Origin: a plasmid
DNA length: 64,000 nucleotides
Sequence record: NZ_CP033968.1
Strand: one strand, 5' to 3'
How positions within the stretch are numbered: the stretch's first letter is position 1; each line of letters begins with the position of its first letter. The translations under genes and the position numbers were made by a program. This document shows positions 28,671-44,901 of this stretch, in pieces. The notes under the pieces are model-generated. The model made no database searches, had not been told where the DNA came from, and saw only the letters and a list, made by a program, of their open reading frames with translations.

Positions 28671-31600
28671 GGGGTCTCCTCGTTTTCAGTGCAATAAGTG
28701 ACGGTACGAAAAGCTAGCACTGGCGCGGAGGTGGTGTTGGTAGATCGTTGATTTCATTGACTTTCCTGTTCACTTTCAAATCTGCGATTCGTGGCGTCAA
28801 ACCGTGGTCGGTTTCATCCATTGGTGCCAGTTATCGATGCATTTGGCCGCGAAGGCAGGATTTGGTCAGCATAGCGGTCAACCGGGAAGCGAAACACACC
28901 CCGCAAGTTGATGCTCTCCAGCCTGGTGGGCGCAATCTTCCCGATCAGTTCCGGTGGAATGACCTGGCGGCGGTTCGACCAGCGATCCAGGACCGCCTGC
29001 ATCTGTGAGGTATTCCACGCCATCACGATGTTGGCCATCAGGCTCAACGCATCGGCCACAGCCTGCATTTCATCGACACGTTTGGCCTGCGCCGGGCTGA
29101 TCCGGCCGGTATAAATGGCGCGCTTGAGGGCGTTAACAGCCTCGCCCCGATTGAGCACCCGGCGCAACTCGTTCCTGAAAGCGTCCTTGACAAAGTAGTC
29201 AGCCAAAAACGCCGTACGCAGCAACCGCCCCAATTGCACGCCAGCCTCATAGATTGGATCGCCCTGGGCGGCAGAACCGAACCGCGCAAGAGCTGCCACC
29301 GCACTGGCATGTCCGCTCATGACCGAGGCTGCCAGGTGCACCAGACTATCCCAATGCTTTTCGATCAAAGCGACGTCGACATTGGCTTCGCACACCGCAG
29401 CGATTTCTGCGGGCACTTTGGTGCCGCGTGGCACAAAGAGGTGGCGCTGTTTGAGTTCCTTCAACCGCGGGCAAAGATCAAAACCAAGCAAACGGGCATG
29501 TGACATGGCAAAGTCGGTGTAGCCATGGGTATCCACAGCAAGCTGGCTGGTCTCCAGCTTTTCTTGGCGGATGACACCTTCAATGGCCACGCCCGCCTGG
29601 CGCTCATTGAGCACAAAGGGCTGCGCATGGAAGATGCCCCACCGGTCTTTTACATGGGAGTAGATTCCAATGGAAGGTGTGTTGCGCCGAGGATCAAGCC
29701 GGGCTTGCCACACCCGTTTGGTGGTCTCCATGCTCATCATGTCAGAAGATGCCAAATCGGACCGCCCCCAGGTGGCGGCAATCGGGTGTCGCTGCATGAA
29801 TTCCAGCACAGCCTGGCAGGCCTGGCTCAGACGCCGTTCGTCCCGCGCCCAGCGCATGGCCTGGCGAATGCTGGTGGCAGACAATTGCGGAATCATGCGC
29901 GCGCATTCGACCGCAGTCAGACTGGTGCCGTGGGCCATGATGCCGGCATAGACCATCAGCAGCTCGTCGGTAGAGCGCGGCTCACGTCCGAGCATGATCC
30001 AGCTAAAGCGCACCTGGGCGTCAACGGCCAGAATCACTTCCGGCAATTGAACCTCACCGATGCGGTGATCCAAAGCCGCGCGCAGCTTGGTCACTTCTGG
30101 GTCTTCGTCCTCTGCGGGCAATGGCGACAAATGGAGTTCATCATCCACGCGCAGTACGCCACTGCGGGCTGCAGCGGCCACCGCATCGACACCGGCAGTT
30201 ACTCTGGCCAGCAAAGGCTTCAAGAAAGTGGCAGCCTTGCTGGGTAACGATAGACGGGCATAGTGTTTCTTGGACTCTGCCTGCCAACGCTCGTCCGTGA
30301 AGAACAAGCGCGCACGACCCCGAAAGCTCAGGCTGTGCTCAATCCAGACCGAGCCATTGCGCACCGCGCGGCGCAGGGCAAACAGGGTGGCCACCTCCAA
30401 CGCCTGAAACGCCCGTTCCCGGTCTGGGCTGGAGATCGAAACCTGCCAGATCATTCCCAGACTTGGTGCCACCACTTCAACTGGCAGCTTTCTGGATCCT
30501 TTGAGATATAAAGCTTGCAGCTTGGCAAGGTACTCGATGGCAGGATGCTCGCCGGTGGCCTGCCAGGGCAGCTTTGCAATGGCGACGAGCAACGACCGCA
30601 CGGGGCGAATTCCATCAATCAATCCCTCGCGGACCAGGGAGGCCCTGCTCGGTGGTTTGCGTTTCTGGGTTTCGGTGATCAAGGCTTCAAGACGGGCACG
30701 CAACTCAGCATCTGGCACCGCACCTTGCGCGCTCAAGGCAACAAGTTCGCCGAGCAGCGTTTTGTACATTGCGGCCCAATTGACGGTAGCGGGGACATCG
30801 GCGGCAGCCTGACGCCACAGATCGGCGATCCGGCGCTGCACCATAAGGATCAACTGGTCTGTGGTGGTGAACAGGCAATACCGAAGAAAGCATGCGACCT
30901 CCACGGTGCGCGCTGGCTCTTTGATCTTGGCTCCGGCTGAGGGCGGCCTGGAGACAAGTCGGCGCGCGTAGCGGCGCAAGATGAGATCGGGGATGTCTGC
31001 CAGGTGCTTATGAACGTCCAGCGTGTAAAGCAGGTCGATGCGCTCCAGTACCTCGCTGATTTGGCGGGTTGAGTGTTTCGCCGGTGCAGCCCATAGCCAA
31101 CTCTGCTGGGTTTGTCCATCTGGGCGCAGCTCTGAAACTGAGGCTCGCCAGCGATCAAGTGTTGCTGGATCAACGCTGGCGGCGATGGCGGTGCCTGTTT
31201 CAACTTCAAGCTGGGCAAGTGCCGCCGCAATCAGTGTCCGAATTGCCCGCTCGTGCACGATCACCAGCTTGTTCTTGTACAGCCATTGACGCGCCCGCAC
31301 GAGTAGCTGATCGCGGTCGGCGCAGCGCGCCACTTCGTCGCGCAGTTCACGTACCAGTGAGCGGCGCTGGTGCTCGCTCATCCACTGGAATCCAAGGACC
31401 GTGCAGGCTACTTGTTGGTGATCGAATAGCGTGCGCCCGCGTTCATACATGGCTCTCAGCGAGGCGACTTCTGGTGCTGCAATGCCAAGCTCGTTGCCAA
31501 GGTGGCGCCACAAGGCTACTGGAATTACCCGAAAGGCACCGAGCAAACGCCCACTCATGCGCAGGAAACCAATATGGAGCGCCAGACCAAGCTTGTGGGA

Positions 31601-31874
31601 ATCACCTCGGCGTGCATTGATTGCGTCGCGCTCGGCACCATCGAAGGTGAAAAATGCCTTCATCTCGAAGTCGCTGATATCGCGGGGGAGCCCACGCATC
31701 CCCAAAAACGTTGTGTGCCAACCCTGCATCGTGAACCTCAAAAGTGGGAGGCCACCATACCCGTTTACAAAGCGAACAGGAAAGTCAATGAAATCAACGG
31801 TCTACCCAGACCACCCCCGCGCCAGTGCTAGCTTTGCGTACCGTCACTTATTGCACTGAAAACGAGGAGACCCC
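28671..31874 (-). mobile_element. IS1071 (Tn3-family IS, 3204 bp, ~110-bp terminal inverted repeats) with no target-site duplication.
   Basis: IRs begin GGGGTCTCCTCGTTTTCAGTGCAATAAGTGACGGTACG and match for ~105-110 bp. Encodes only tnpA. Flanking 5-mers differ (TGAAC vs CAATC). Confidence 0.85.
28814..31741 (-). CDS. tnpA: IS1071 Tn3-family transposase TnpA (975 aa).
   Basis: Tn3-family TnpA length with a DDE region. Bracketed by the long IRs. Confidence 0.9.
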   Translation of the reverse strand: MRFTMQGWHTTFLGMRGLPRDISDFEMKAFFTFDGAERDAINARRGDSHKLGLALHIGFLRMSGRLLGAFRVIPVALWRHLGNELGIAAPEVASLRAMYERGRTLFDHQQVACTVLGFQWMSEHQRRSLVRELRDEVARCADRDQLLVRARQWLYKNKLVIVHERAIRTLIAAALAQLEVETGTAIAASVDPATLDRWRASVSELRPDGQTQQSWLWAAPAKHSTRQISEVLERIDLLYTLDVHKHLADIPDLILRRYARRLVSRPPSAGAKIKEPARTVEVACFLRYCLFTTTDQLILMVQRRIADLWRQAAADVPATVNWAAMYKTLLGELVALSAQGAVPDAELRARLEALITETQKRKPPSRASLVREGLIDGIRPVRSLLVAIAKLPWQATGEHPAIEYLAKLQALYLKGSRKLPVEVVAPSLGMIWQVSISSPDRERAFQALEVATLFALRRAVRNGSVWIEHSLSFRGRARLFFTDERWQAESKKHYARLSLPSKAATFLKPLLARVTAGVDAVAAAARSGVLRVDDELHLSPLPAEDEDPEVTKLRAALDHRIGEVQLPEVILAVDAQVRFSWIMLGREPRSTDELLMVYAGIMAHGTSLTAVECARMIPQLSATSIRQAMRWARDERRLSQACQAVLEFMQRHPIAATWGRSDLASSDMMSMETTKRVWQARLDPRRNTPSIGIYSHVKDRWGIFHAQPFVLNERQAGVAIEGVIRQEKLETSQLAVDTHGYTDFAMSHARLLGFDLCPRLKELKQRHLFVPRGTKVPAEIAAVCEANVDVALIEKHWDSLVHLAASVMSGHASAVAALARFGSAAQGDPIYEAGVQLGRLLRTAFLADYFVKDAFRNELRRVLNRGEAVNALKRAIYTGRISPAQAKRVDEMQAVADALSLMANIVMAWNTSQMQAVLDRWSNRRQVIPPELIGKIAPTRLESINLRGVFRFPVDRYADQILPSRPNASITGTNG

Positions 31875-32101
31875 CAATCCGACAAGGCGATCAACTCGTT
31901 CAGTTCGTCGTCTGGGATCGAGAGCAACCAGGCACGTAGCTCATCCTCATTCATCTCGACCGGGTTCTTGTCGAGGTCTACGATGCGCCAACGCAACCGC
32001 TCGCGGGCTTCCACGTTGAGCGGTGGCGGAAGAATCGGATGCGAGTGCGAACCGCTCGCACCCGATTTCGGCCTCAGACGGAACCCATAAAAGGTCTTCA
32101 T
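31875..32101 (-). pseudogene. N-terminal fragment (~75 aa) of a gene abutting the IS1071 right end.
   Basis: The ORF runs into the IS IR. Sequence MKTFYGFRLRPKSG...DDELNELIALSDW. Confidence 0.35.
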
Positions 32102-32122
32102 TGCACTACCGACGGGCCGAGG

Positions 32123-32467
32123 TCAGTCCGTGAAACCGACCAGCCACTGATTGTCGTGGTCGAACAAGTAGGCCACCACGGTCCTATGCTTTTGGATCTG
32201 GGCCGCCTGCTTGGCGGCGCCGCGATAGTCTGCGAACACCTTGGCCAGGTCCGGGTTGGCACCATACCGATAGACCGTGACCCCGCGTTGGGACTCCATG
32301 GCATCGGCCAGGAATTCGTCGCTATCGGGCAGGTGCACGACGTAGCCCACGAACTTCGCGGACGCCGCAAAACCCATACTTTCGCGCATGGCCTCGGGGC
32401 TCGGTACCGCGCCAATGGCAGCCTCCACACGTTCTGTCTGACTGCCGCGCCGCTTGGCCTCACCCAT
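32123..32467 (-). CDS. Hypothetical protein (114 aa), paralogous at its N-terminus to the upstream gene.
   Basis: Start MGEAKRRGSQTERVEAA with GGAGG RBS. Internal start of track ORF 32123..32548. Confidence 0.45.
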   Translation of the reverse strand: MGEAKRRGSQTERVEAAIGAVPSPEAMRESMGFAASAKFVGYVVHLPDSDEFLADAMESQRGVTVYRYGANPDLAKVFADYRGAAKQAAQIQKHRTVVAYLFDHDNQWLVGFTD

Positions 32468-32813
32468 GGTGAGTACCTCCGGACGGGCCGTCGAGCGGGA
32501 GGTAGCGCCCATCGGACGATTGGCTGCCGACGACGCCTTCGCTGCCAATCATGTCCTGCCACGCAAGGATGGAATCGGCCACCGCATCGGAGTCGCCCTT
32601 GAATGCGACGACCGACTCCCCGCACGTCGGGCACGGCCCGCCAAAGGCCGCATCGATACCGGCCAGGCCGCGCGTGCCCAGCGCCTCAAACTCGGCAAAC
32701 GCCGTTTTGCAGCTGCCGCACACCAGCGTCTCCGGGCGCAGCGCCGCCAGTTTGGCGTGCGCTTGCGCCACCCGTTGTTCTTTGGTCCCGCGTTGTTTTG
32801 CTTGTCCCACCAT
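32460..32813 (-). CDS. Hypothetical zinc-ribbon protein (117 aa).
   Basis: MVGQAKQRGTKEQRVAQA..., CGSCKT...CPTCGE. AAGGGAGAA RBS. Confidence 0.45.
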   Translation of the reverse strand: MVGQAKQRGTKEQRVAQAHAKLAALRPETLVCGSCKTAFAEFEALGTRGLAGIDAAFGGPCPTCGESVVAFKGDSDAVADSILAWQDMIGSEGVVGSQSSDGRYLPLDGPSGGTHHG

Positions 32814-32869
32814 TTCTCCCTTGTTGATACGGCCTGAGCCGGCAAAGTCAGAGCGCGGTCAGCGGGCCG

Positions 32870-33529
32870 CTATTCTTCAGGCATCCAGTAAAACTCACCC
32901 GCATCCACGTCTTCCAAGATACGCGGCTCCGGCGCTCCCTTCTGCTCGACCGAGACAATCGTGCCGTGTCCGTACATGCGTTGGCCGACCTTTGGAAACT
33001 CCACGATCGCGATCACGGGTACCGCGAACGATGTTTCTTGGTTGTAGGCGTAGGCGTCCCCTGAAACCTCAATCCTCAGAATATCCGGCACTTGATCTTC
33101 GGCGCAATGGCAGCGGCTTGAGGTCGCTCTCTTGACATCCGGGTAACCGACCAATCGCTGGATGGCGTGGATTCGGGAATTGGACGTGTCCTCGAAAACA
33201 AGTTCAGCCGCGTTGTGCATGCCGCCGATGGTGGTCAGCCAAAATGGCGTAATGCCGCTGGGTCGAAGCGCCAAGGAAACGTCTCGCCACTGCGCTTCAG
33301 TCACGGCAAGTCCGAGGTCCTCCGCGCGTGCGAGTCCCGCCGCATCGTCGAACAGGACATAGTGGGGCTTGCCATTCAGGGTGTCGAGATCCGTCGCGCG
33401 AAGCGACGCGTACGTTCGGTGGCCGAGGCAGGCAGCGAGGAGCTGATGCACTTGGCCGAGTTTGATTTTGGGAGCTTGCTTGACAAGGAGGGCGTGCGCG
33501 ATGCCGCTCCAGCGGGAGAACTGGTCCAT
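32870..33529 (-). CDS. Hypothetical protein (219 aa), downstream in the tle1 operon. A candidate immunity or accessory protein.
   Basis: Track ORF, same strand as the T6SS module. Confidence 0.4.
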   Translation of the reverse strand: MDQFSRWSGIAHALLVKQAPKIKLGQVHQLLAACLGHRTYASLRATDLDTLNGKPHYVLFDDAAGLARAEDLGLAVTEAQWRDVSLALRPSGITPFWLTTIGGMHNAAELVFEDTSNSRIHAIQRLVGYPDVKRATSSRCHCAEDQVPDILRIEVSGDAYAYNQETSFAVPVIAIVEFPKVGQRMYGHGTIVSVEQKGAPEPRILEDVDAGEFYWMPEE

Positions 33530-33760
33530 GGTTGTCTCTCAGAGCACAGCGAACGTTGAGCGTTTAGCGTCCGCCGCCTTTGACAATCATGCGACGCGGA
33601 AGGAAGAGATGAATTCGTGCCAGTTTAAGCCGCTCAAAACTTGGGCTGGGAGCCCAGGCGGCGATGCGCGCCCGTGATGATTCTGCCATTGGTCCGAACC
33701 AAACGCAAACGCAGTCACGAAGATGGCAACGATGGTCTGCCCTCGGGCGGATCTAAACGA

Positions 33761-34147
33761 CTACTGCTCGATATAGGTGCCGAGCACCAGCACCTGTCCC
33801 GCCTCGGAAATCTCGAAAACGACGTTGCGACAGTTGAATTCAAAGCCGGTCCCATCGACGCCGTGCAGGTAGGAAACAACTCCGCCGCCTGCGAAGTGCA
33901 CCGTATGGGACACGGTGTCGTAGAGGCGGATGATGCTGTGTTTCACAACCTTCGAGAGATCGGCGATGGTGACTGCGCGGATAGCCGGCGTCCGCCCGTC
34001 GATGTCACCGTCGCGTGAGCAGTGAACCGTGGCGACGCCTGGCAACGTGACCATGAAGCTACCGTCGGGGTAGTCCATCCGCTGCCCACCTTGGCAGTCG
34101 ACAGCGGCGCGGGAATGTGGCGAAGGTGGGTCGGATCGGTCAGGCAT
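33761..34147 (-). CDS. Hypothetical protein (128 aa), downstream of tle1.
   Basis: Track ORF. Confidence 0.4.
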   Translation of the reverse strand: MPDRSDPPSPHSRAAVDCQGGQRMDYPDGSFMVTLPGVATVHCSRDGDIDGRTPAIRAVTIADLSKVVKHSIIRLYDTVSHTVHFAGGGVVSYLHGVDGTGFEFNCRNVVFEISEAGQVLVLGTYIEQ

Positions 34148-34443
34148 GGAGGTCTCTCGAAAACAGGACGGAAATGCTGTTTATGCGATCAAGGCGCCCC
34201 GGAGATTCCGACAACGCTGAAGACCAGCAACGGCAGCAGCATCAACCCTCCGATTCCCATGAAGACATAGGCGATTGCACGCAATACACGTCGCTGTGCG
34301 GCCATAGAGCGCAGCGCCTCCTCATCCGTGGAGGCACCCGTATCAGTCATCCCCATGGAAGCGAGCAGGCTCGCGATCCCGAGTCCGAGCAGGACGATTG
34401 GGAGGTCGAAGTCAGCTGAGGAAATGCCTGTTTCCTGGCTGCG

Positions 34444-36723
34444 TCAAAGCATGGGGACCCCGCCGCCTGAGTACTGCTCCAGGACGCGCTTCGCACCACG
34501 TTCCAGCGCGTCTTGGCCGGCAGACAAGAGCTTGCGAGCTGTGCTCGCTAGACCCTCTTCTGCGCTATGCGCGACTTCGCCGACCTTCTGGGAGACTGTG
34601 TCCGCTACCTTGCCAGGCACCGCCGCCACACGGTCCCACGCCGCTTGCGCACGCTCGCCCAGCGTCAGCTCCGGCGCGAAGTGTGTGCGCCAGCGTAGAT
34701 ACCCCCATACTGAACTGAACTCGCGTCCGGTTTTCTCCAACGGCAGCGTGCCGTCCTTCAGATAGCGGTCCAAATCGATGCGATCCTGACCCATAACTGG
34801 TGGCGGTGGCGGCGCGACTTCACCCTTGCCGCCGTCAGAAACCGGCGCATAGCGCTCGATCGTTCCGCGCGGGTCCCGCTGGAGGTCCGCGCTCATCTTC
34901 TGCCACTCCGCCTTCCATCTGGCGTTCCACTCGGCATCTTTGCGCTTGAGGTCTTCCAGCCGGTTTTTTTCCCTCAGCTTCCAGACCCCTTCATTGGTGG
35001 CGCCCATTGGCTTGAACCACGCACGCGAGTCGTGCACGTAGTCGTCAAAGAACTTGACGATCCTCGGGTCCAACGGCGACGTGTCATTCCAATACTCTTT
35101 GACCTCTCGCCACTGTGCAACTTTGTCGCCCCATATGGCACGGTGGAGTCTGATCAACGCCTCAGCGGCCACACCTGACCTGCGGAATACCGCCGCCATC
35201 CAGCCATCTGAGTACAGGATGGAGTTTTCCATCTCCGACATCGTCTTGGCTTCTTCGCGCAATTCTTCGTTTGCGCCGCTCAGATCCTGTGCGCACTGAG
35301 CACTGTAATTCTGTGCTCGCCTGAAAAAGGGTTGGTTCTCAAAGGCATCGGGTCCGCTGCCCAGGCGCAGCCGACGCCAACGCAGGTACAAGCCGTATTG
35401 CACGTGTGCTGCGCCAGTAGTTCCTCCGCCCTTCTTTTTGATAAGCGGATTCACCGCATCAACGTACGCGTTGTAGTCCTTGATCAGTTGGGGCGAGATC
35501 TTGAGTGCATCCAGAACCCGAGGTGGAAGATCCGCTGACGGCTTCAACGGCACGCCGGCAGCAACGGCTTCCCGATACATCTTGGCAAGTGTCACTTGCG
35601 AGAGCTTGGTGCTGTCGTCGGGTGTTCCGTCGGCCCTGCAACCACGGCCTTGGTCCCCTGGCCGGTATGCCCCGCCCACATCCGTGTGGACGCCTGGATA
35701 GGCGATTTCGAGCAGATCCCTGGCGACCGCCTTGTCCAACGGGAACGAGCCACGTATTTCGTGTGAGGAAATCAAGTGGACCGTCCGATTGACATATTTC
35801 GGAATGCGTAGGAATTCCTCTTGGCCCCACCCGCCGTGGCCGGTGGAGAACATGGAGCTTTGGGCGAACCCCACGGACGCGACAGTATCCAAGATTCCGA
35901 GGAAATCGAAGCTCACCTCGACACCAGCCAGCGTCATACCTGGGTCGAACGCATCTTCCAGCCAGTTGCTGAACACCCGAGCTTCCGCCGCGCCGCGTGA
36001 GAATCCGAACACGTACAGGCGAATGCGCTGGAGCTTCGGCTTGCGGTCGGCGATGAGTGCCTTCAGCTTTTGCGAAAGGAACTCGCGCCGCCGTTGCAAC
36101 TCCTGCTTGCGCGGAATGGCATTGGGAATGTTGTCCGCCGTGTCCAACGCGACGGCGAGCGTGCGCCCCGTCCCTGCGTCATTCAGTTGCTCCACTTCGT
36201 CTTTGATCTTCTGCGCCTCGTCGCGTGCGCCGGCTTCCGCGCGCTTATGTACAGGGAAGCTCAAATCGCCCGAGATTTTGCGAAGCACCTTCAGATCTTC
36301 GGTGCCCATCGCCCTACTCAGATCATCTCCGTAAAACAGCTGGTAAAGCGCATCGGTTAGTTTCAGCAATGCCCAATTGATGCGGGCTTCACCGCCCCAG
36401 CCCGCCATCAGCCCCGCCCGTGCGTCATAGCCGCGGCCGGTGTCGCCGATTTCTTTCTCGAACGGTGTCCCGATGCCGGGCACATAGAAGGCCACCTGAT
36501 TTTTCTTCCGCTCAAAGATGTCGTACAGCCGCGCTACGTTACTGTGGGCGTGCTTGGGTGCGTCCCGATCCTTGTTGTTGTTGGTGCCATCGAAGAAGAT
36601 CCCGATTCGCAATTCCTCGGTGCATTGCCCTGAGAAGGCCTCAATGTTGTTCGCCATGCACCGTCCCTTCTCGTCCAGCGTTAGGGCGAAGGGATTTGGC
36701 TGCAGTCGTTCGAGTTCGGCCAT
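34444..36723 (-). CDS. tle1: T6SS phospholipase effector of the Tle1 family (DUF2235 alpha/beta hydrolase, 759 aa).
   Basis: IGIFFDGTNNN start of the DUF2235 domain. GxSxG lipase motif in VFGFSRGAAEAR. Positioned after vgrG, DUF4123 and DUF3304. Confidence 0.8.
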   Translation of the reverse strand: MAELERLQPNPFALTLDEKGRCMANNIEAFSGQCTEELRIGIFFDGTNNNKDRDAPKHAHSNVARLYDIFERKKNQVAFYVPGIGTPFEKEIGDTGRGYDARAGLMAGWGGEARINWALLKLTDALYQLFYGDDLSRAMGTEDLKVLRKISGDLSFPVHKRAEAGARDEAQKIKDEVEQLNDAGTGRTLAVALDTADNIPNAIPRKQELQRRREFLSQKLKALIADRKPKLQRIRLYVFGFSRGAAEARVFSNWLEDAFDPGMTLAGVEVSFDFLGILDTVASVGFAQSSMFSTGHGGWGQEEFLRIPKYVNRTVHLISSHEIRGSFPLDKAVARDLLEIAYPGVHTDVGGAYRPGDQGRGCRADGTPDDSTKLSQVTLAKMYREAVAAGVPLKPSADLPPRVLDALKISPQLIKDYNAYVDAVNPLIKKKGGGTTGAAHVQYGLYLRWRRLRLGSGPDAFENQPFFRRAQNYSAQCAQDLSGANEELREEAKTMSEMENSILYSDGWMAAVFRRSGVAAEALIRLHRAIWGDKVAQWREVKEYWNDTSPLDPRIVKFFDDYVHDSRAWFKPMGATNEGVWKLREKNRLEDLKRKDAEWNARWKAEWQKMSADLQRDPRGTIERYAPVSDGGKGEVAPPPPPVMGQDRIDLDRYLKDGTLPLEKTGREFSSVWGYLRWRTHFAPELTLGERAQAAWDRVAAVPGKVADTVSQKVGEVAHSAEEGLASTARKLLSAGQDALERGAKRVLEQYSGGGVPML

Positions 36724-36724
36724 C

Positions 36725-37267
36725 TCATCGCTCCTGGCTGGATGACGCCATGCGCTCGGGATAGAACTTGGCGGCGCACGCCTTGTCCGCCATGCAAGCG
36801 TCTTCTGGATACTTCAGTCCGCCTGGAAATTTGGGATTGAGAGGCGTATAGCGCGAAGCAATGGCTCTTATCTTCTTGCCTGGGTAAAACGCTAGCCAAA
36901 GCGAACTTGGATCGCCGTCAGGATACGGCTCGACGGGGACCTGTGCCTTGTATGTCGCATCATGGTCCTTCCGGTAGAGCGTGTCGTCCTGCCATTCAAC
37001 TTCTACTGTAAGACCTGGATGCCACTTGCGTGGCACACCGATTGCCCCTGCAACACCAAAACCCCCTGCATGGCGCTTCTCACTTCCTACCCAAACGCCG
37101 TTTACATAAACGATGTCGAGTCCCTCATCCATGTAGTTGAGCACTCGGACCTCAAGGCCGAGGTCTTCATCTTGCTGGGCAGCATTCGCCTGCTCCGCAG
37201 GCTTGCAGCCGGCGCTGAGCGTGGCCAACACCACCAACACGAGTGCCATCCATGTTCGAATTTTCAT
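36725..37267 (-). CDS. DUF3304-like lipoprotein, a putative Tli1-type immunity protein.
   Basis: Lipobox LATLSAGC. ~180 aa periplasmic protein located between the adaptor and the effector. Confidence 0.5.
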   Translation of the reverse strand: MKIRTWMALVLVVLATLSAGCKPAEQANAAQQDEDLGLEVRVLNYMDEGLDIVYVNGVWVGSEKRHAGGFGVAGAIGVPRKWHPGLTVEVEWQDDTLYRKDHDATYKAQVPVEPYPDGDPSSLWLAFYPGKKIRAIASRYTPLNPKFPGGLKYPEDACMADKACAAKFYPERMASSSQER

Positions 37268-38115
37268 GACTGTTCCGTCGTTTCTTGCGACTGCAGCAAA
37301 CCAGCTTCACTCAATGCACCGGCGACTACTCGAAAAACCACTGCGTCATGCGCGCCCGCGTTGAACTCGGGGCTATCCAGCGCCATCCGAATGCAGCTAT
37401 GCGCCTGAGATGGTGTACCTGTTAGTTCTCCCCACCAATGCACGTTCGTCTGAATGAGTCTCAGCAGGCCATCCGGGCGAGCCAGCGCATCAAGACGATC
37501 CATCTGCTCCCGACTGAAGACATAGGGTTCGTCAGTCCGGTCGGCTGAAGCATCGTCAGGGTGACCGACAGCCTGCAACCTGCCATCGCGTCGGAAGTAC
37601 CACCACCGCAACCCATTCAGGAAGCGCTCACGCTGCGCGTCATCAAACACCTGCAGCAGCGCATCCAACGAGCGGGTATCCGCGAAGCGGATCAGGAACG
37701 CCTTCCCCTCATGGTCCACAGCTTCCATCTGGTCCTGGAGGTGCGCGACTGGATCAAGAGCCGACGCGATGCGATGCAAGAAGCTCAGCATCGGCTTGCC
37801 CGAAGTCTCATTCAGAACGAACTCAAGGAACGTACGCCGTTCGGATTCTTCAACCGGTATGCGGACCACGGAGGGGGCGATTTCTGCCAAGCCGGGCCCG
37901 TCATAGCGCCCCTCGTAGAGTGACTGCGGATGCAAGCCCGGAAACCGCGAGCGTAGCCGCTGCGCGAAACCGGTATCGAACGCGTTGTCGACCAAGGCAT
38001 ACACGTTCGCCTCCGGCAATGCGCCAAAAAGTTGTGCCAGAGCGCTATCCGGGAAATCGTTCACCCAAGCAGGTTCATCCGAGCGTCTGCGTTGAATCTG
38101 GAAACGGGTTGCCAT
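37264..38115 (-). CDS. DUF4123-family T6SS effector adaptor or chaperone.
   Basis: YALVDNAFD motif. Immediately downstream of vgrG. Track ORF 37264..38205 overlaps the vgrG 3' end, so an internal start was chosen. Confidence 0.6.
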   Translation of the reverse strand: MATRFQIQRRRSDEPAWVNDFPDSALAQLFGALPEANVYALVDNAFDTGFAQRLRSRFPGLHPQSLYEGRYDGPGLAEIAPSVVRIPVEESERRTFLEFVLNETSGKPMLSFLHRIASALDPVAHLQDQMEAVDHEGKAFLIRFADTRSLDALLQVFDDAQRERFLNGLRWWYFRRDGRLQAVGHPDDASADRTDEPYVFSREQMDRLDALARPDGLLRLIQTNVHWWGELTGTPSQAHSCIRMALDSPEFNAGAHDAVVFRVVAGALSEAGLLQSQETTEQS

Positions 38116-38143
38116 GGTGCCAATGACCTCGATGTCTGCTAAA

Positions 38144-41020
38144 TCAGCCGTTCCTGCTACCGAGCGAATGACCGCCAGCCATTGCGCGCAACATGCATTC
38201 GACACAGATGCTCTGTGGAAACGCCGGCAACGGATACGACTGGTTCACCGGCCCATCAAAGGTGCGCTGCGCGGCCTTGTAGGTAATCGGCCCGGAGCAC
38301 TCGACGGTGATGTTGCCGTCCTCCAGCGTAATGGCTGCACCGGCCGCCGTCGCCAGGCGAATCCGCTTGGCCGCCGCAAAATCCACGTTCATGTTGGCCG
38401 ACACTAATTTCAGGTCATCCTTGGCCATGAGCTTCAGCGTGTCGTGCTGCGCCTGAACGTCGATGTTGCCCTGGCCGGCGGTCAGTTGCAGGCCGATGTT
38501 GTTGTCACCCGCCTTGGACAGGCCCGCCGCCACGCCGATCGCTTGCCCAGCGTGCATGCGCGCCTGTTTGCCGACGGCGATGTTGGTGTCCTGGCCGCTG
38601 CCCAGGGCGATGCTCTCGCCGTTGGCCAACTGCAGATCCTGACCGGCCACCATGACCAACCCGGCGCGGCCGTTCGCATGCACCATCGCCTCGCCCTGGT
38701 GTGGCACCTTGCCCGGCGTGCTGGTGTTGCCGGCGCTGGCATCCTGCTTCGCCGCATCGAGCGCCTTGCCGTCCACCATGCCGGCGGCGGCCTTCTCCTG
38801 CTTGGCCAGCGGCGCATTCTCGTCCTTCGCCGACGACAGGCCAGCGGTCTGATGGGTGACGGCCCCTTGGCCCAGCGATTGGGTGAGCGCCTTGGCCTGC
38901 TTGATGAGGGCAATGCCGGCGGCGTTGTCGCCTGTGGGCACAGCTTTGCCGCTGGCGGCGTCGCGGTAGGTGGTCAGCAGCAGTCCGGCCTGGCCGCGCA
39001 CGGCGGCGTGGCCGTCGGTGCGCAGCTCGAAGCCCTGACCACGGAAGCTGCCGCGCCGGTTGTCCTGTTGGTGAACGAGGTGGCCAAGGTTGATCTGGCT
39101 GTGTAGCTGCGTGGTGGCAAGCTGCGTGCGCAACTGACCATCGCTGTCATCGAAGACGAGCTGGTTGTAGCCGCTGCCGCCGTGTTCGGCGCTCTTGAAG
39201 CCGGTGTGCGCAGCAGCGTTGCGGTGTCCGTCCGCGTCGGTGCCCATGCCGTGCCAGGCGGGGCTGTGGCCGCCCGCCACGTTACCCTGGGCGCTCGGGG
39301 CCGTATCGCTGCCTTGTTTGTAGAGTGCGGCCGTGTCCATTTGAGCTGCGGTTTGGCCGCCGGGCGTCGGCGCAACGCCGGCCTCGCCCTGACCGTTGTA
39401 GAGGGCACCAATGACGACCGGCTGGTCGACATCGTCTTCGCTGAACTTGACGAGCACTTCCTGCCCAATGCGCGGCAGCCATTGCCAGCCCATGCCGGAA
39501 CCGGCCTGCCGCTGCGCGACGCGTACCCAGCGGCTGCTTCGGTCATCTGCACGCTCGCCTTGTTGCCAGGGAAAGCGCACGCGGATTTCACCTGCGGGGC
39601 TGGCATGGTGCTCGCCGTCTCCGCCGGCTTGGGTCTGGCCGTCCGGGCCGACCACGATGGCGCTGTGTACGCCTTGCGCGGTGGGCGCCGCGTAGAGACG
39701 GCCGCAATCGGGTTCAGTCACGGCCGGGCGCCAGGGCCGGCGTGCGTCGCCGGCGCGGAAGACGCCAGCGTAACCGTGCGCGCGTGCTGCTTTGAGCAGA
39801 TCGCCAGTCGGCGTGCTGCGTTCGACGGGGCCTTCTGCTTCTTGGAAACCAAAAACGCCCGGGCCGGATTCCGGCGCGCTGGGCGGCGTATCGAATGCCA
39901 GCGCGGCATCGAGCCCGCCCAAACGCTGGCTGAGCGCGTTGTGCGTATCGACGGTCAGGTTGTTGATGCCGCAGTGCTCGACCAGATCCATCAACAGCGG
40001 ATAGGCGCCTTCCACGTCTTGCGGCAGGTGCGGGCAATCCACCACCTGCAGACGCGTACCGCTGCGCAGCGTGCGCACCGTGCCTCGCCCCGAGAACAGC
40101 AGTGCGCGCGCCTCCAGGCTTTCCATGACCTGCTCGGCAATGCGCTGGGCATTGGCGGAATCCGGCGCCAGCGACGGGCTGATGGACAGATACGCGTCGG
40201 GGCTGCCGGCGCTGGTGGCAAAGCGCGCGGGCGCATGGGCACGCACGCTGTGCTTGCCTTCCGGGTCCCACGCGGCCACGGCAACGCCGCCGGCAGTTGT
40301 GCGGGTGTGGCAGGCCAGTTGCTGGATGGCGTCGCGCTCTTCCAGGCTGTGCGCGCGGTGGAAGCGGATGCCGCCGGCCGCAGCCGACTCCGTGTCTTCC
40401 GGCAGCTGCGTGCTGTCGGCAAAGATCACCAGCGTGTGGCCGCCGTGCGCCTGGTCGTCTTCCACCGTGGTGAAGCCGAGCCCCGCCTCGGCGAGAAGGC
40501 GTGTGACGAAGTGGTAGTCCGTCTCGCGAAACTGCGCGATGTGCGCGCGTGTACCGAAATCGCTCATGCGTGCTTCGGCACCGGCCGCGTAGCGCCACGA
40601 GGCGTACGGCTCGTACGGCGACAGCATCTGCTCAATGATGTCAGCGAGCGGCCGATTCTGGAACACCTGGCTGTGGCGCTGCTGCGTGGTCAGCCAGAAC
40701 CATGGCACCACCGTCAGGCGATAGCGCGTGAGGCTGCCGTCCGCGCCGAGCTTCTCAGCCAGGCGGATCAGGCCCGTGCGCTTGGTCTGCGTACCATCGG
40801 CCAGCGTCGTGACCAGCGTGACCCGCTGGCCCAGCAATGATTTGAGCGCGATGCGCGCATTGGCGCTGACGGCCACCACGCGCCATTCGAACAGTTCGGA
40901 CAGTGCCTCGCGACCGAGCCAGGCTTCCACCGCCAGATCCGCAAGCGGCCCGTCGCCTTCCAGCGTGTACAGGCGGCGTGTGGGGGCGAAGAGGTTCTGA
41001 AGAAGGGTTGTGACTTCCAT
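38144..41020 (-). CDS. vgrG: T6SS spike protein VgrG (958 aa).
   Basis: gp27/gp5-like architecture. Its C-terminal half has Gly-rich beta-helix-like repeats. Confidence 0.9.
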   Translation of the reverse strand: MEVTTLLQNLFAPTRRLYTLEGDGPLADLAVEAWLGREALSELFEWRVVAVSANARIALKSLLGQRVTLVTTLADGTQTKRTGLIRLAEKLGADGSLTRYRLTVVPWFWLTTQQRHSQVFQNRPLADIIEQMLSPYEPYASWRYAAGAEARMSDFGTRAHIAQFRETDYHFVTRLLAEAGLGFTTVEDDQAHGGHTLVIFADSTQLPEDTESAAAGGIRFHRAHSLEERDAIQQLACHTRTTAGGVAVAAWDPEGKHSVRAHAPARFATSAGSPDAYLSISPSLAPDSANAQRIAEQVMESLEARALLFSGRGTVRTLRSGTRLQVVDCPHLPQDVEGAYPLLMDLVEHCGINNLTVDTHNALSQRLGGLDAALAFDTPPSAPESGPGVFGFQEAEGPVERSTPTGDLLKAARAHGYAGVFRAGDARRPWRPAVTEPDCGRLYAAPTAQGVHSAIVVGPDGQTQAGGDGEHHASPAGEIRVRFPWQQGERADDRSSRWVRVAQRQAGSGMGWQWLPRIGQEVLVKFSEDDVDQPVVIGALYNGQGEAGVAPTPGGQTAAQMDTAALYKQGSDTAPSAQGNVAGGHSPAWHGMGTDADGHRNAAAHTGFKSAEHGGSGYNQLVFDDSDGQLRTQLATTQLHSQINLGHLVHQQDNRRGSFRGQGFELRTDGHAAVRGQAGLLLTTYRDAASGKAVPTGDNAAGIALIKQAKALTQSLGQGAVTHQTAGLSSAKDENAPLAKQEKAAAGMVDGKALDAAKQDASAGNTSTPGKVPHQGEAMVHANGRAGLVMVAGQDLQLANGESIALGSGQDTNIAVGKQARMHAGQAIGVAAGLSKAGDNNIGLQLTAGQGNIDVQAQHDTLKLMAKDDLKLVSANMNVDFAAAKRIRLATAAGAAITLEDGNITVECSGPITYKAAQRTFDGPVNQSYPLPAFPQSICVECMLRAMAGGHSLGSRNG

Positions 41021-41035
41021 GCGGCGATCTGCCCG

Positions 41036-41530
41036 TTACAGGTGCAATGTCCAACCATCCACCGGCGGCTGCACGCGCGCAGGATCTGGGCGGGGGGATT
41101 TGTTTTCGAGAAGTTCGGTAATGGCATCGAACGCTGCTAGGCGCGCAGCCTCATCAGAGGCATAGCCCGTTTCTGCCCGACAGATTTCGGTTTGCCGGAT
41201 GGGGCGAATTTCGTAACGCCATCCGTTCTCCTGCCGCCACACCGTGGTCACATAGCCATCGGCCGGAAGCGACATGGGGCCATCGAAACTGCCGCCGCGC
41301 TTCCATGCGCGGGTCAGCCATAAGAGGCGCTTGGTCGCCCGGCTGCGCGGCGGCGGCTTCGGCTCGCTCTGTTGCGGTTTCACCCGCAACTCGCGGGAAC
41401 AGTCTTCGTCGACGCGCAGCACGCCGTGGTAGTTGTGATGACGTAATACGTGCACCGGCCCCGTGAACACGCCACGGCATCGGTCACACGTGCCGACACC
41501 GGCGTCGCCCTCGTCGGCAGCGACGCGAAT
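41036..41530 (-). CDS. Hypothetical protein upstream of vgrG with a Cys/His cluster (CDRCRG...HVLRHHNYH...DEDC). Start uncertain.
   Basis: High GC3 only in the 3' two-thirds of track ORF 41036..41656. Confidence 0.35.
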   Translation of the reverse strand: MRVAADEGDAGVGTCDRCRGVFTGPVHVLRHHNYHGVLRVDEDCSRELRVKPQQSEPKPPPRSRATKRLLWLTRAWKRGGSFDGPMSLPADGYVTTVWRQENGWRYEIRPIRQTEICRAETGYASDEAARLAAFDAITELLENKSPRPDPARVQPPVDGWTLHL

Positions 41531-41833
41531 CCACCCATCGCGCGGCAAGCCGGCCTTGATCCATCGGCCTTGCTCCCAGACAGTGGGCGGTCGGGTTCCG
41601 CGGGCTTTGCGGGGTGACCTGATTGACCTCATCGACGACCAGCACGGGTTGACCAAAACCCGGGATGGTAGAGCGGCTGTGGCCCGTTATCGCTGAAAAA
41701 TATCGAAATCAGACTTAAAAAGAACTGTCCACCAGACCCGATGCTGGCATTGCTTGCATGCGCGCTGACACGGTTTTCAGCCCGAGGCGGGGCCGATATC
41801 GCACCGGTCAGCCCTTATGATGCGTAGCCTGGC

Positions 41834-44800
41834 GTGACGAGACTCAAGACGCAAACATTCTCGGCGGTTGAGACGATGCAGCAGATCCATGACACGGCCT
41901 ACCCAATGCTGCCGGCCGAACTGGGGGAAACGGAACTGGCCACGGTGTTCACCCCGAGCCCGGCCGAAATCCGCTTTGTTGCCGACCAGTATCGGCAAGC
42001 GCCCACGCGCGCGCTGATCCTCGTCCAGCTCAAGCTGTACCAGCGGCTGGGCTACTGCCCGCCAGTTTCGGGCGTTCCGACGGCCATCGTGCATCACGTG
42101 TGTTCGGTGCTGCGCATCCGCCCACTGCTGCGCAGCGTGCTGGCACGATACGACCGTTCAGGAAGCAAATCCCGCCACCAAAAGCTCCTGCGCGACTTTA
42201 TCGGCATTCGCACCACGGACGCGCAGACACACGCGTGGCTTGCCGATGTGGCCGCGCACGCGGCGCGCATCAAAACGGAACTGCCTGACATCATCAACGT
42301 CCTGATCGAGGAGCTGATCCGGCACCGCTATGAATTGCCGCCGCTGGCCGCGCTGACCAGGATCGCTGCCCACGCCCGCAGTCAGGTCAACGAAACCATC
42401 TACCGCACGATCGTCGAGGCGCTGGGGCCCGACCTGATCGTCAGAATCGATGCGCTCTTCGACAACCGTGGCGGGCGCACCGGCTGGGATCAGGTCAAAC
42501 GGGAACCCAAGCGGCCCGCGCCACGGGAGATCGCCGGGTTCCTCAAGCACATCGAGGCGCTGCGTGTCTTGGCTGATGGCATGCCGGTGGCACCGGAGAT
42601 CCTCACCGCGCCAAAGTGCACGCAGTTGGTCACGGAAGCGCGCGCCCTGGATGTCCAGGAAATGCGGTCGCTCAAGCCCACCAAGCGCTATGCGTTGGCT
42701 GTCCTGTTCATCCTTGCGCAGTTGCAAAAAGCACTGGACGACGTGGCCGAGATCTTCATCAAGACGGTGCGCAACCTGGAACATACGGCCGAATTGCGCC
42801 TGCAGCAGTACCAATTAGCGCACGCGGACCAGCTTGAGGCCCTGGTCGGTCAGTTTCGAGACGTGCTCGGTGTGCTGCAGGACGACACGCTGCCGGCGGA
42901 AGCCCGTGTCGCGAAGATGCGCGCGGCGCTGGGCGGCGATCCCGATGGGGTACTGACCCGCTGCAATGAACACATCGCCTACGCGGGAAACCATACGTTT
43001 CCCTTCATGCTGCGTCCGTATCGGAACCTGCGGGCGCTGCTGTTCCAGTGCCTCGATCTGCTATCGCTCAGGGCCAGCTCGCAAGACGATGCGCTCCTGC
43101 GAGCGCTGGACTGGATGCGCAGCTACAGGACCTCGCACCGCGAATACCTGATGCTCAGCGACCGTGACGCGGCCAACCTACCGCTGGGCTGGATACCGGA
43201 CAAGTGGGAGAAGCCGATTTTCCCGAATGGCAAGAGCGGCCGGCTGATGCACCGCAAGTACTTCGAGCTGTGCGTATTCAGCCAAATCATGCGGGAGTTG
43301 AAATCGGGTGACATCTATGTGGAGAACAGTGACCAGTACGACGATCCACGTGTGCACCAGGTGTCGTGGGAGGAGTTCCGGGCGGAACTACCGCGCTACA
43401 GCGAGCTGGTCAATTTCCCGGTCGACGGCAAGGCATTCGTCCAGGCGTTGAAAGAAGAATTGGGTACGCTCGCTGACGCGGTGGACTCTGAGTTCCCTGC
43501 CAACGACCATGTGGAGATCAGCGAACAGGGGCTCATCCTGCATCGGCTGGAGAAAGATCCCGATCCGCCCAACAAGCTGCTGATCGATCAGGCCATCACC
43601 GCGTCGATGCCACCGGTGAGCATTCTGGACATCCTGATCGAGACCGAGCGGTGGCTCGACTTGCACAAGCTGTTCGGTCCGCTGTCGGGGTTCGAAGCCA
43701 AGATCGACGATCCGCGCAAGCGGTTCATCACAACGCTGTTCTGTTATGGCTGCAATCTCGGACCGAGCCAGACCGCGCGCTCGGTGAAGAACCTGAGCCG
43801 CAAGCAGGTCGCCTGGCTGAATCTGCGACACGTCACCGAGGAGCGCCTGGACAAAGCCATCGTGCAGGTCATCAATGCCTACAACCGGTTCGCTTTGCCG
43901 AAGTTCTGGGGTTCCGGCAAGCGGGTGTCGGCCGACGGCACGAAGTGGAACCTCTACGAGCAGAACCTGCTGTCGGAATATCACATCCGGTACGGTGGCT
44001 ATGGCGGCATCGGTTACTACCATGTCTCCGACATGTACATCGCGCTGTTCAGCCACTTCATTCCCTGCGGCGTGCACGAGGCCGTCTACATCCTGGATGG
44101 GTTGCTCAAGAATGCCTCCAGCGTGCAGCCCGACACCGTCCATGGCGACACGCAGGCGCAGAGCGGGCCGGTGTTCGGCTTGGCACATCTACTGGGGATC
44201 AACCTGATGCCGCGCATCCGAAACATCAAGGATCTGGTGTTCTACAAGGCCGACCGGCGCCGGCGCTACAAAAACATCGATTCGCTGTTCCGGGGCACCA
44301 TCGACTGGGCACTGATCGAGCGGCATTTCCCGGACATGCTGCGCGTGGCCATCTCGATTAAGGTCGGCCGTATGACGCCGTCGACGATCCTCCGGCGCCT
44401 CGGCTCCGAGAGCCGCAAGAACAAGCTGTACTTCGCTTTCCGAGAGTTGGGCCGCGTCATCCGTACGATGTTCCTGCTGAAGTACATCAGCAACCCCGAC
44501 ATGCGACGGGCCATCCATGCGGCCACCAACAAGAGCGAGCAGTTCAACGACTACGCGCAGTGGCTGATGTTCGGGGGAGAGGGCGTCATCGCCGAGAACA
44601 TCCGGCACGAGCAGCGCAAGGTCATCAAGTACAACCAACTCGTGGCCAACATGGTCATCCTGTACAACGTGCAGTGGATGTCGCGCAAGCTCAAGGAGCT
44701 TCAGGAGAAGGGGTTGCCGATCGACGCCGAAGTGCTGAAGGTGCTGTCGCCTTACCGGAAGGACCACATCAACCGGTTCGGCGATTACTTGATGGACCTG

Positions 44801-44860: not shown

Positions 44861-44901
44861 ACTCATTCTGGCGGAAATTTTACGAATCCCGGCCGACCCT
44901 C
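44856..44901 (-). repeat. Right terminal inverted repeat (46 bp) of the Tn3-family transposon.
   Basis: See the transposon entry. Confidence 0.7.

Follow-up and report, generated by a model that had tools for sequence, protein, structure and literature searches.

A T6SS Tle1 cassette as a predicted passenger of a Tn3-family transposon with metal-efflux genes

The window analysed here, a 64-kb stretch (64,000 nucleotides) of the plasmid NZ_CP033968.1, contains a run of genes resembling a T6SS effector locus, which raises the question of what this locus is, how it is carried and which secretion system could use it. The original prediction described an orphan island of ten co-directional minus-strand ORFs, with vgrG, adaptor, lipoprotein and phospholipase genes and five small genes downstream. 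All ten ORFs are present at the positions given for them, but the island is not free-standing: it lies inside a Tn3-family transposon as part of the cargo. We consider it highly probable that the locus is a complete T6SS weapon cassette riding as a passenger of a mobile 25.2-kb transposon of this family, together with metal efflux.

The vgrG-tla1-tli1-tle1 cassette

The cassette consists of four contiguous genes, with neighbours packed closely or overlapping:

38144-41020, minus strand: vgrG, 958-aa T6SS spike protein containing DUF2345 and ending in a 34-aa tail (Pfam, TIGR03361)
37264-38115, minus strand: tla1, DUF4123 adaptor/chaperone, 283 aa, ORF extendable to 38205 (Pfam DUF4123)
36725-37267, minus strand: tli1, DUF3304 lipoprotein, predicted outer-membrane immunity protein (Pfam, lipobox)
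34444-36723, minus strand: tle1, Tle1-family (DUF2235) phospholipase effector, 759 aa (Pfam, PDB matches, motifs)

The domain calls made earlier for the four products (VgrG, DUF4123, DUF3304 and Tle1) were borne out by Pfam matches, all of which exceed the gathering scores. VgrG matches Phage_GPD (206 bits), T6SS_Vgr (111 bits), DUF2345 (125 bits) and Phage_base_V (57 bits), passes the NCBIfam TIGR03361 cutoff and is 87% identical to the VgrG of an auxiliary cluster in Ralstonia sp. R-29. The adaptor gene, which sits between vgrG and the effector gene, matches DUF4123 (PF13503, 52.1 bits for the ORF 37264-38205) and scores 59 bits against the NCBIfam Tla1 model, below the 200-bit cutoff; its start is most likely at 38115, the gene call in all related loci. 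It shares an ATGA overlap with tli1, whose product matches DUF3304 (PF11745, 60.6 bits) and reaches 53 bits against NCBIfam Tli1a_fam, below the 110-bit cutoff, so that it is a relative of this family and not an equivalog. Tli1 begins with a hydrophobic segment and a lipobox (LSAG/C21, with Lys at +2; sequence MKIRTWMALVLVVLATLSAG/C), which is the sole signal-peptide-like N-terminus in the region. The placement of 34444-36723 in the DUF2235/Tle1 family, named in the original prediction as a point on which it could fail, was upheld by a match to T6SS_Tle1-like_cat (PF09994, 88.7 bits, cutoff 27) and by the PDB Tle1 structures 9j3f (E 1.9e-174), 4o5p (E 1.6e-46) and 6sjl (E 1.2e-11). The two motifs that had suggested it are found at residues 43-50 (FFDGTNNN) and 240-244 (GFSRG, of the GxSxG type). 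Ser242 lies in GFSRG, Asp279 in LDTVASVG and His346 in GVHTDVGG, and from family knowledge we take Asp279 and His346 to be catalytic residues.

The linkage that marks the Tle1 family, vgrG and a periplasm-facing immunity gene alongside tle1, is present here. A decayed cassette was ruled out, as every ORF is intact and has the same sequence in the different copies. Judged from sequence, 34444-41020 can be described as a complete auxiliary T6SS weapon cassette of predicted function, for which we infer export, phospholipase A activity, toxicity and immunity. A promoter and terminator consensus scan of 31800-42000 gave no promoter-like sites and terminator-like sites at chance level, and neither Rfam nor a tRNA search gave a match anywhere in the window.

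The position of the lipoprotein gene between adaptor and effector, previously regarded as odd, is in fact canonical for Tle1 loci, as seen in P. aeruginosa and in a Ralstonia relative. The P. aeruginosa genes PA3294-PA3290 form the island vgrG4a-tla1-tli1b-tli1a-tle1, in which the roles were shown experimentally and the lipoprotein is the immunity protein; there, Tle1 acts in the periplasm, and the known Tli1 proteins are lipoproteins (PMC13133936). [quoted passage not shown] In contrast to P. aeruginosa, there is one tli1 gene and not two, Tle1 has 759 aa compared with ~882 aa and is nearer to PDB 9j3f than to the P. aeruginosa structure 4o5p, VgrG has a DUF2345 region and is far longer than VgrG4a, the Tla1 and Tli1a scores lie below the NCBIfam equivalog cutoffs, and the cassette lies within a transposon, whereas the vgrG4a island is fixed on the chromosome. 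An independent chromosomal locus in Ralstonia sp. R-29 has the same order (vgrG 87%, tla1 67%, two tli1 copies, tle1 80%), and a search of genome contigs with Tle1 returned a single relative, at 80%. As a T6SS cassette, the locus is one more Tle1 locus, and an ordinary one.

Genes on either side of the cassette

Five small genes (d1-d5) lie downstream of tle1, and one ORF lies upstream of vgrG:

33761-34147, minus strand: d1, 128 aa, predicted all-beta and cytoplasmic
32870-33529, minus strand: d2, 219 aa, betaproteobacterial family of mobile elements without T6SS genes
32460-32813, minus strand: d3, 117 aa, N-terminal GQAKQRG motif and CxxC...CxxC
32123-32467, minus strand: d4, 114 aa, N-terminal GEAKRRG motif
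31844-32101, minus strand: d5, 85 aa, chimeric ORF
41036-41632, minus strand: upstream ORF, 198-aa form (longer form to 41656)

The original prediction had grouped the five downstream genes with the island as one block and looked among them for immunity candidates. Only d1 is syntenic with Tle1 in the independent Ralstonia sp. R-29 locus, from which d2-d5 are missing, and homologues of d2 occur in unrelated mobile-element contexts with no T6SS genes there. In d5, the last 8 native residues are swapped for 9 encoded by the end of an IS1071 inverted repeat. From the contexts of homologues and the independent Tle1 locus, d2-d5 and the upstream gene were rejected as T6SS components.

Since the DUF3304 lipoprotein is the expected immunity protein, there is no need to seek one downstream, and it is very unlikely that these genes include extra or alternative Tle1 immunity proteins. 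The best candidate would be d1, which comes after tle1 in this locus as well as in that of Ralstonia sp. R-29 and is kept in a small Ralstonia/Burkholderia family. However, the five products were searched for signal peptides, lipoboxes and membrane segments, and none has any, whereas Tle1 acts in the periplasm and the known Tli1 proteins are lipoproteins; the absence of d2-d5 from the independent locus and the contexts of d2 homologues argue in the same direction, and there were no informative fold matches. AlphaFold2 modelling of d1 (pLDDT 68) and the upstream ORF (pLDDT 65, C-terminal domain ~90) gave nothing significant against PDB folds (best E 0.04-0.09).

As for the paralogous N-termini previously proposed for d3 and d4, the quoted strings exist, but they align over 17 residues only, at 47% identity (E ~0.08 in a ten-protein comparison). 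Over its first ~20 positions, the phage family phrog_35223 is matched by both of them (E 4.5e-4 and 6.9e-3), and these weak N-terminal matches were the only ones returned by PHROGs and PADLOC for the six unassigned ORFs. Judged from these alignments, the two N-termini represent a common short motif, and paralogy is not demonstrated. The Cys/His cluster pointed out earlier in 41036-41656 is present; it lies in a variable N-terminal region and is conserved among close homologues only, whereas the C-terminal beta4-alpha domain is conserved. Distant homologues of this ORF are located at prophage ends and not at T6SS loci. The modelled domain bears a weak PUR/Whirly/Sub1-like beta4-alpha resemblance, which may serve as a lead only.

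The Tn3-family transposon and its other cargo

The cassette is bounded on one side by a transposase gene and on the other, in the window copy, by an IS1071 insertion/deletion. The transposon extends from 19663 to 44901 (25.2 kb; intact copies ~26.3 kb) and contains the following features:

19663-19708: IR-L, inverted repeat, 46 bp, preceded by the AATAT target duplication at 19658-19662
20174-28338, plus strand: metal-efflux module (Pfam and NCBIfam)
21034-22119, plus strand: membrane-fusion protein
22116-25232, plus strand: CzcA/CusA-type RND pump
25229-26485, plus strand: outer-membrane factor
26599-27525, plus strand: CDF transporter
27629-28204, plus strand: cytochrome b561
28425-28670, minus strand: 3′ remnant of a KfrA_N-type DNA-binding gene cut by IS1071 (alignment to the BS1 plasmid copy)
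28671-31874, minus strand: IS1071, Tn3-like IS, secondary insertion (tnpA 28814-31741)
41876-44860, plus strand: tnpA, Tn3-family DDE transposase, 994 aa
44856-44901: IR-R, inverted repeat, 46 bp, followed by AATAT at 44902-44906

The two repeats are identical at 38/46 positions (8/46 differ) and of the GAGGG...TAAG type, and the stop codon of tnpA lies inside the inner TAAG motif of IR-R; the same 19-nt repeat tip occurs in Burkholderia relatives. TnpA matches DDE_Tnp_Tn3 (PF01526, 496 bits), DUF4158 and NCBIfam NF033527 (717 bits, equivalog cutoff 500). The window copy lies within a gene of the GSU2403-family nucleotidyltransferase fold on a pMOL30-like conjugative plasmid, and a C. campinensis MJ1 plasmid has the uninterrupted target with a single pentamer. 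The 5-bp target duplication reads AATAT for the window copy; for the copy of C. metallidurans BS1 it reads AAGTA. Among four full-length copies with both ends readable, the flanking pentamers match in two and do not match in the other two, so simple insertion does not account for every copy. The flanks diverge exactly at IR-L in 14 different left-junction sequences, and 12 different sequences abut IR-R. By its predicted transposase, its terminal repeats and its 5-bp duplication, the element is of the Tn3 family.

IS1071, with 106-nt inverted repeats and at least 99.8% identity to IS1071 on many plasmids, has no target duplication in the window. Compared with intact copies, it replaces 4.3 kb containing DUF2807, RHH-ParE, DUF6904 and a 398-aa tyrosine recombinase, whereas intact copies carry the RHH-ParE toxin-antitoxin pair and the recombinase. 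The resolution and toxin-antitoxin module has been lost to IS1071 in this way, and with the tyrosine recombinase deleted, the window copy lacks what is expected for Tn3 cointegrate resolution. No res site was identified in any copy. The window copy keeps tnpA and both ends, and the transposon is presumably still mobile. The metal-efflux module is 98.5% identical over 8.17 kb to a chromosomal locus outside the transposon.

Tn3 elements of the Tn4651 group and those bearing toxin-antitoxin genes have 46-bp repeats, a tyrosine recombinase with a divergent DNA-binding gene, and a toxin-antitoxin pair beside the recombinase. The layout found here resembles this group by description, the recombinase/KfrA_N module being deleted in the window copy. 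That mobile elements move vgrG-linked clusters is already established in principle: in the Ralstonia solanacearum species complex, aux clusters that are vgrG-linked and encode Tle1 toxins (aux6, aux11) have prophages, conjugative plasmids and composite transposons of IS1021 as their vehicles (PMC11481896). The cassette is likewise a vgrG-linked cluster of toxin and immunity genes, and it comes from the same bacterial family. Unlike these vehicles, the element described here belongs to the unit transposons of the Tn3 family: it has a TnpA of its own, terminal repeats, 5-bp duplications and metal efflux, and this type is absent from the vehicles listed in PMC11481896. Tn3-family transposons of the TnXax1 type in Xanthomonas, as summarised in PMC13390648 (citing Ferreira et al. 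2015), have type III effectors as passengers. According to that summary, they share with our element a Tn3-family TnpA, short terminal repeats, 5-bp duplications, resolution genes of the tyrosine-recombinase type and secreted-effector passengers that need a secretion machine encoded elsewhere; on the same account, they differ in carrying T3SS effectors and not a T6SS spike-adaptor-immunity-effector set, and our element is much larger, with metal efflux and a toxin-antitoxin pair in addition. The transposon vehicle appears to be undescribed in the literature searched.

Spread of the transposon and predicted use of the cassette

The copies of the transposon are essentially identical and were seen in Ralstonia-like chromids, Cupriavidus plasmids and metagenomes, with at least 12 different right-end junctions among them; one copy has a Ralstonia-chromid-like flank. 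The exact TnpA protein occurs in 413 collection blocks and the exact Tle1 protein in 507, and the vgrG module lies beside the exact TnpA in all 10 of the places listed. A scan of metagenome contigs with the 40-nt IR-R gave no match. Two copies are inserted within T6SS clusters of their hosts, where they adjoin VgrG-ClpV-TssG or OmpA-TagF-TssM; these make up 2 of 12 distinct junctions read at the right end, and there may be a landing bias in or beside T6SS loci.

As originally predicted, no T6SS core genes (tssA-M, hcp) were found in the 64-kb window, either in the annotated near-identical plasmid regions or among the transposon genes (Pfam), so the cassette must rely on a T6SS encoded elsewhere, which supports the earlier view of a vgrG-linked auxiliary module. 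VgrG would form the spike, and the DUF4123 Tla1-like adaptor would load the Tle1 phospholipase on its C-terminus; a T6SS encoded elsewhere would inject both into nearby Gram-negative cells, and there Tle1 would hydrolyse membrane phospholipids from the periplasm, and the DUF3304 Tli1-like outer-membrane lipoprotein would protect the carrier and its kin. TnpA would move the whole unit, including the CzcCBA-like RND pump and the CDF transporter, so that weapon, antidote and metal resistance would travel jointly, passing between chromids of Ralstonia and conjugative megaplasmids of Cupriavidus. We assume that the transposon VgrG is compatible with the host T6SS, which would then presumably use the cassette; in one T6SS-positive host, the VgrG encoded by the cluster is only 31% identical to it, a value that is uninformative on compatibility.

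The window's host may lack any system that could fire the cassette. It is possible, though not probable, that it is a silent hitch-hiker there, with the transposon selected for metal efflux, no compatible T6SS and at most passive protection by Tli1. The window comes from a pMOL30-like Cupriavidus plasmid of a metal-resistance lineage and is without T6SS core genes, reports of T6SS clusters in C. metallidurans concern only some isolates, and the near-identity of the copies points to recent spread rather than long per-gene selection, all of which would fit a silent passenger; against this, all four ORFs of the cassette are intact, and copies in T6SS-positive hosts have the same sequences. It is rather unlikely that the cassette is a selfish maintenance or drive module, with carriers killing transposon-free siblings and neighbours in the way that the ParE toxin-antitoxin pair stabilises the element within the cell. 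Such a role is consistent with effector and immunity genes lying inside the transposon beside tnpA in every copy inspected, with RHH-ParE as a second addiction-type module in intact copies and with the wide occurrence of the element in near-identical form, but it is argued by inference throughout and requires a working host T6SS, and the same data are explained by ordinary host benefit in interbacterial competition. Unlikely, too, is an 'armed' transposon, whose new carriers would kill contact neighbours lacking it and so drive both the transposon and metal resistance, maybe with a landing bias towards T6SS loci.

In the preferred reading, a complete cassette carried by a mobile Tn3-family transposon, the vehicle matters more than the cassette: one transposition would deliver weapon, antidote and heavy-metal efflux, and metal co-selection would be linked to the spread of contact-dependent killing. 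Near-identical copies already occupy many sites on chromids of Ralstonia, on conjugative megaplasmids of Cupriavidus and in numerous public assemblies, and the unit has been overlooked because pipelines label its genes only as DUF proteins or 'Tn3 family transposase'. It offers a natural, well-bounded system for asking whether T6SS effector/immunity pairs may be inter-cellular addiction modules for mobile DNA.

Boundaries and insertion of the transposon

The cassette region is bracketed by two Tn3-type transposases, that of IS1071 (28671-31874) on one side and TnpA on the other. TnpA (41876-44860, plus strand, 994 aa) scores 717 bits against the NCBIfam Tn3 equivalog model, for which the cutoff is 500, and its stop codon is contained in the inner TAAG of a 46-bp repeat at 44856-44901 (IR-R, GAGGGTCGGCCGGGATTCGTAAAATTTCCGCCAGAATGAGTCTAAG). 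An inverted partner (IR-L, GAGGGTTGGCCGGGATTCGTGTATTTCTCGCCAGAATGATCCTAAG) lies at 19663-19708, with an identity of 38/46, and the pentamer AATAT forms a direct repeat just outside both ends. In a related plasmid of C. campinensis MJ1, the target is uninterrupted, and the sequence up to window position 19662 is joined to that from 44903 via a single GATAT. The interrupted gene belongs to the plasmid backbone and encodes a GSU2403-family nucleotidyltransferase fold (19658-19662 / 44902-45090; compared in the related loci L058 and L013). Plasmid p1 of C. metallidurans BS1 carries a copy that is 100% identical over 31874-44903 and sits 190 bp from the window site, in the opposite orientation, with AAGTA on each side. 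In summary, the inverted repeats, the AATAT duplication, the MJ1 empty site and the BS1 copy show that 19663-44901 (25,239 bp) is a bona fide Tn3-family transposon inserted as a whole, and that the cassette island is its cargo. The ends, the duplications and the empty site show movement of the whole unit by TnpA, and we infer that TnpA can still mobilise it at present.

In the assembly collection, the exact Tle1 protein occurs in 507 blocks, against 413 for the exact TnpA; among the places listed, the vgrG cassette lies beside the exact TnpA in 10/10. Sequence divergence starts exactly at the repeat tips, with twelve distinct sequences abutting IR-R and fourteen abutting IR-L. Some copies lie on 1.1-2.4 Mb contigs, others on contigs of plasmid size or on metagenome scaffolds; the flank of one is 82-84% identical to Ralstonia chromids, and the backbone in the window is that of a pMOL30-like conjugative Cupriavidus plasmid. 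Relatives of TnpA on Burkholderia plasmids (75-78% nucleotide identity) have the same repeat tip and different cargo, for example arsenosugar genes.

Two other full-length copies of 26.3 kb, readable at both ends, have flanking pentamers that differ (AACAA/TCCTT in L005/L038, JGI 3300010214; ATCAA/TGTAT in L009/L053, GCA_054403015.1), which suggests that copies recombined with one another later or that transposition was intramolecular. Nested insertions or truncations are present in further copies; the transposon has been repeatedly rearranged after insertion. In one copy (L002), the last small gene (about window 31967) contains a distinct 975-aa Tn3-type element that has DUF6429 and an integrase, and in two others (L007 and L010, about window 43467) tnpA is interrupted by an element with a bactofilin gene.

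Elsewhere in the window, an IS21-like ISRme9 (istA/istB, 9410-12106) is 99.9% identical to copies in pMOL28-type plasmid records of C. metallidurans CH34, and a C-5 cytosine DNA methyltransferase gene of the backbone (46380-47816) precedes F-type transfer genes (TraU, TrbC, TraW and the coupling protein). Rearrangement breakpoints relative to BS1 p1 lie at window positions 14300, 16203, 17488 and 19662, and a second, 80%-related Tn3-family transposon in BS1 abuts the sequence matching position 14300. The window and BS1 p1 insertions are two hits within one small target.

The vgrG-tla1-tli1-tle1 cassette

As originally predicted, the ten ORFs at 31844-41656 are co-directional on the minus strand. 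Four of them score well above the Pfam gathering thresholds, and Pfam and NCBIfam agree on the domains that had been proposed for them.

Genes of the cassette (window positions)
38144-41020, minus strand: VgrG (Pfam Phage_GPD, Phage_base_V, T6SS_Vgr and DUF2345)
37264-38205, minus strand: ORF of the DUF4123 adaptor (Pfam DUF4123)
36725-37267, minus strand: DUF3304 protein (Pfam DUF3304)
34444-36723, minus strand: Tle1 effector (Pfam T6SS_Tle1-like catalytic domain)

VgrG exceeds the TIGR03361 cutoff, and since the matches to the NCBIfam "Tla1" chaperone and "Tli1a family immunity" models are below their curated cutoffs, the adaptor and the DUF3304 protein are relatives rather than equivalogs. 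Among solved structures, Tle1 matches 9j3f, a 779-residue "Tle1 phospholipase domain-containing protein" (E 1.9e-174, aligned residues 9-735), as well as the Tle1 proteins of P. aeruginosa (4o5p, E 1.6e-46) and enteroaggregative E. coli (6sjl, E 1.2e-11). Both motifs from which the family was first recognised are present, FFDGTNNN at residues 43-50 and the GxSxG motif GFSRG, with Ser242 as the predicted nucleophile, together with the Asp and His motifs of the family, LDTVASVG (Asp279) and GVHTDVGG (His346).

The four genes are tightly packed, with 29 nt between the vgrG stop and the tla1 ATG, an ATGA overlap of tla1 and tli1, and 1 nt between the tli1 stop and the tle1 start; gene calls in every related locus give an adaptor of 283 aa, starting at 38115. 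The DUF3304 protein has a lipoprotein signal (MKIRTWMALVLVVLATLSAG|CK, with Lys at +2), and no other N-terminus in the region is strongly hydrophobic. The original prediction held its position between adaptor and effector to be unusual; this order is in fact canonical. The characterised P. aeruginosa locus reads vgrG4a-tla1-tli1b-tli1a-tle1, and its DUF3304 proteins are outer-membrane lipoproteins (PMC13133936). Ralstonia sp. R-29 has, on its chromosome, an independent cluster with a gene order identical to that of the cassette (VgrG 87%, adaptor 67% and Tle1 80% identical), but with two DUF3304 paralogues, 72% and 65% identical to tli1, where the window has one. Because these loci share their order with the cassette, 36725-37267 is the expected immunity gene, by analogy. 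In P. aeruginosa, Tle1 is bound by Tli1a, its assigned immunity protein, and co-production of Tli1a failed to rescue Tle1 toxicity; DUF3304 immunity to Tle1 has likewise been reported in Burkholderia, Klebsiella and Vibrio (PMC13133936).

A signal-peptide check had been proposed as a way to find immunity candidates among the five small downstream ORFs (d1-d5), and none was positive; neither they nor the ORF upstream of vgrG (41036-41656) has a signal-peptide-like or membrane segment. Only d1 (33761-34147) has a homologue after tle1 in the R-29 cluster (51% identity); we treat it as a possible accessory of the cassette. Its tiny family (9 clusters, Ralstonia and Burkholderia) favours a 128-aa form, and its AlphaFold2 model, all-beta and of moderate confidence, has no significant match in the PDB. 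We treat d2-d5 and the upstream ORF as mobile-element cargo. Members of the d2 family (32870-33529; about 220 aa, betaproteobacterial, 46 clusters) are found next to phage-like genes, integrases and other Tn3-type transposases, with no T6SS genes nearby. The N-termini of the overlapping d3 (32460-32813) and d4 (32123-32467), suggested to be paralogous, have no more in common than a short motif of 17 residues (47% identical, E about 0.08); this motif, G-x-A-K-x-R-G-[ST]-x3-R-V, also heads phrog_35223, a phage family to which both proteins align over its first ~20 positions. A CxxC...CxxC pattern in d3 looks like a zinc ribbon. The upstream ORF, for which homologue alignment favours a 198-aa form, does have the Cys/His cluster noted earlier, at its N-terminus, kept in close relatives only; what is conserved is the C-terminal domain, confidently modelled as strands 128-165 and helix 168-186, with no significant fold match for the model. 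Its distant homologues lie at R. solanacearum prophage ends.

Efflux cargo and IS1071 damage

From the left end, the transposon carries the efflux module and, in intact copies, a KfrA_N DNA-binding gene and, diverging from it, DUF2807, RHH-ParE, DUF6904 and a 398-aa tyrosine recombinase, followed by d5 to d1, the Tle1 cassette, the upstream ORF and tnpA.

Left part of the transposon (window positions)
20174-28338: efflux module (membrane-fusion protein, CzcA/CusA-type RND pump, outer-membrane factor, CDF transporter and cytochrome b561)
28671-31874: IS1071 (106-nt inverted repeats; many plasmids have copies with an identity of at least 99.8%)

Over 8.17 kb, the efflux module shares 98.5% identity with a chromosomal locus without transposon ends (L055, CP049132.1; L052), which, judged by sequence, is likely its source or a recombination partner. 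OprB/Usp and ferritin/catalase genes border this chromosomal locus (L055, L052, L046). In some copies, the efflux half diverges by ~1.5% while the T6SS half is identical (98.5% and 100% in copy L003 against the window), which suggests exchange of the efflux half with resident efflux loci.

In the window, IS1071 stands in place of a 4.3-kb stretch that begins within the KfrA_N gene and ends shortly after the recombinase, so that the KfrA_N 5′ part, DUF2807, RHH-ParE, DUF6904 and the recombinase are lost. It also makes d5 (31844-32101) chimeric, its final eight native residues, which read THPDDKAG in intact copies, being swapped for nine encoded in the IS1071 end. The absence of a 5-bp target duplication at this copy indicates an IS1071-associated deletion or recombination. 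The window transposon has kept tnpA and both ends, without a resolution or TA module.

T6SS in carriers and place among known systems

Of the 12 distinct right-end junctions, two fall within T6SS clusters of the host, hence at least some carriers have the machine that the cassette needs. One is ~240 bp downstream of the cluster vgrG, followed by clpV and tssG (L031, ENA ERZ23491427 scaffold_9), and the other adjoins ompA-tagF-tssM (L032, GCA_013391365.1, JACAWZ010000005.1); this may reflect a target or selection bias. In C. metallidurans, T6SS clusters are reported in some isolates only (PMC12481858; PMC6612558). The P. aeruginosa DUF4123 protein bridges the Tle1 catalytic domain and the VgrG C-terminus (PMC13133936). 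By homology with that system, the adaptor would load Tle1 on the VgrG C-terminal region in the cytoplasm, a T6SS encoded elsewhere would fire the spike, Tle1 would attack target phospholipids from the periplasm, and the outer-membrane DUF3304 lipoprotein would protect carriers.

Clusters of this type, with vgrG-linked Tle1, are already well known, and in plant-pathogenic Ralstonia they lie on prophages, conjugative plasmids and IS-flanked composite transposons (PMC11481896). Secreted-effector passengers of Tn3-family transposons are known for type III effectors (TnXax1, as cited in PMC13390648), whereas the passenger here is a vgrG-Tle1 cassette; no description of a Tn3-family unit transposon with a vgrG-effector passenger was found in the full text of the literature searched. 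We place the cassette among the Tle1 auxiliary clusters, for which the transposon is, within that literature, a previously unremarked vehicle. If the window host has no T6SS, the cassette would be a hitch-hiker of which the immunity gene alone is potentially useful. The main interest, a moderate one, is that a weapon, an antidote and metal resistance are co-mobilised.
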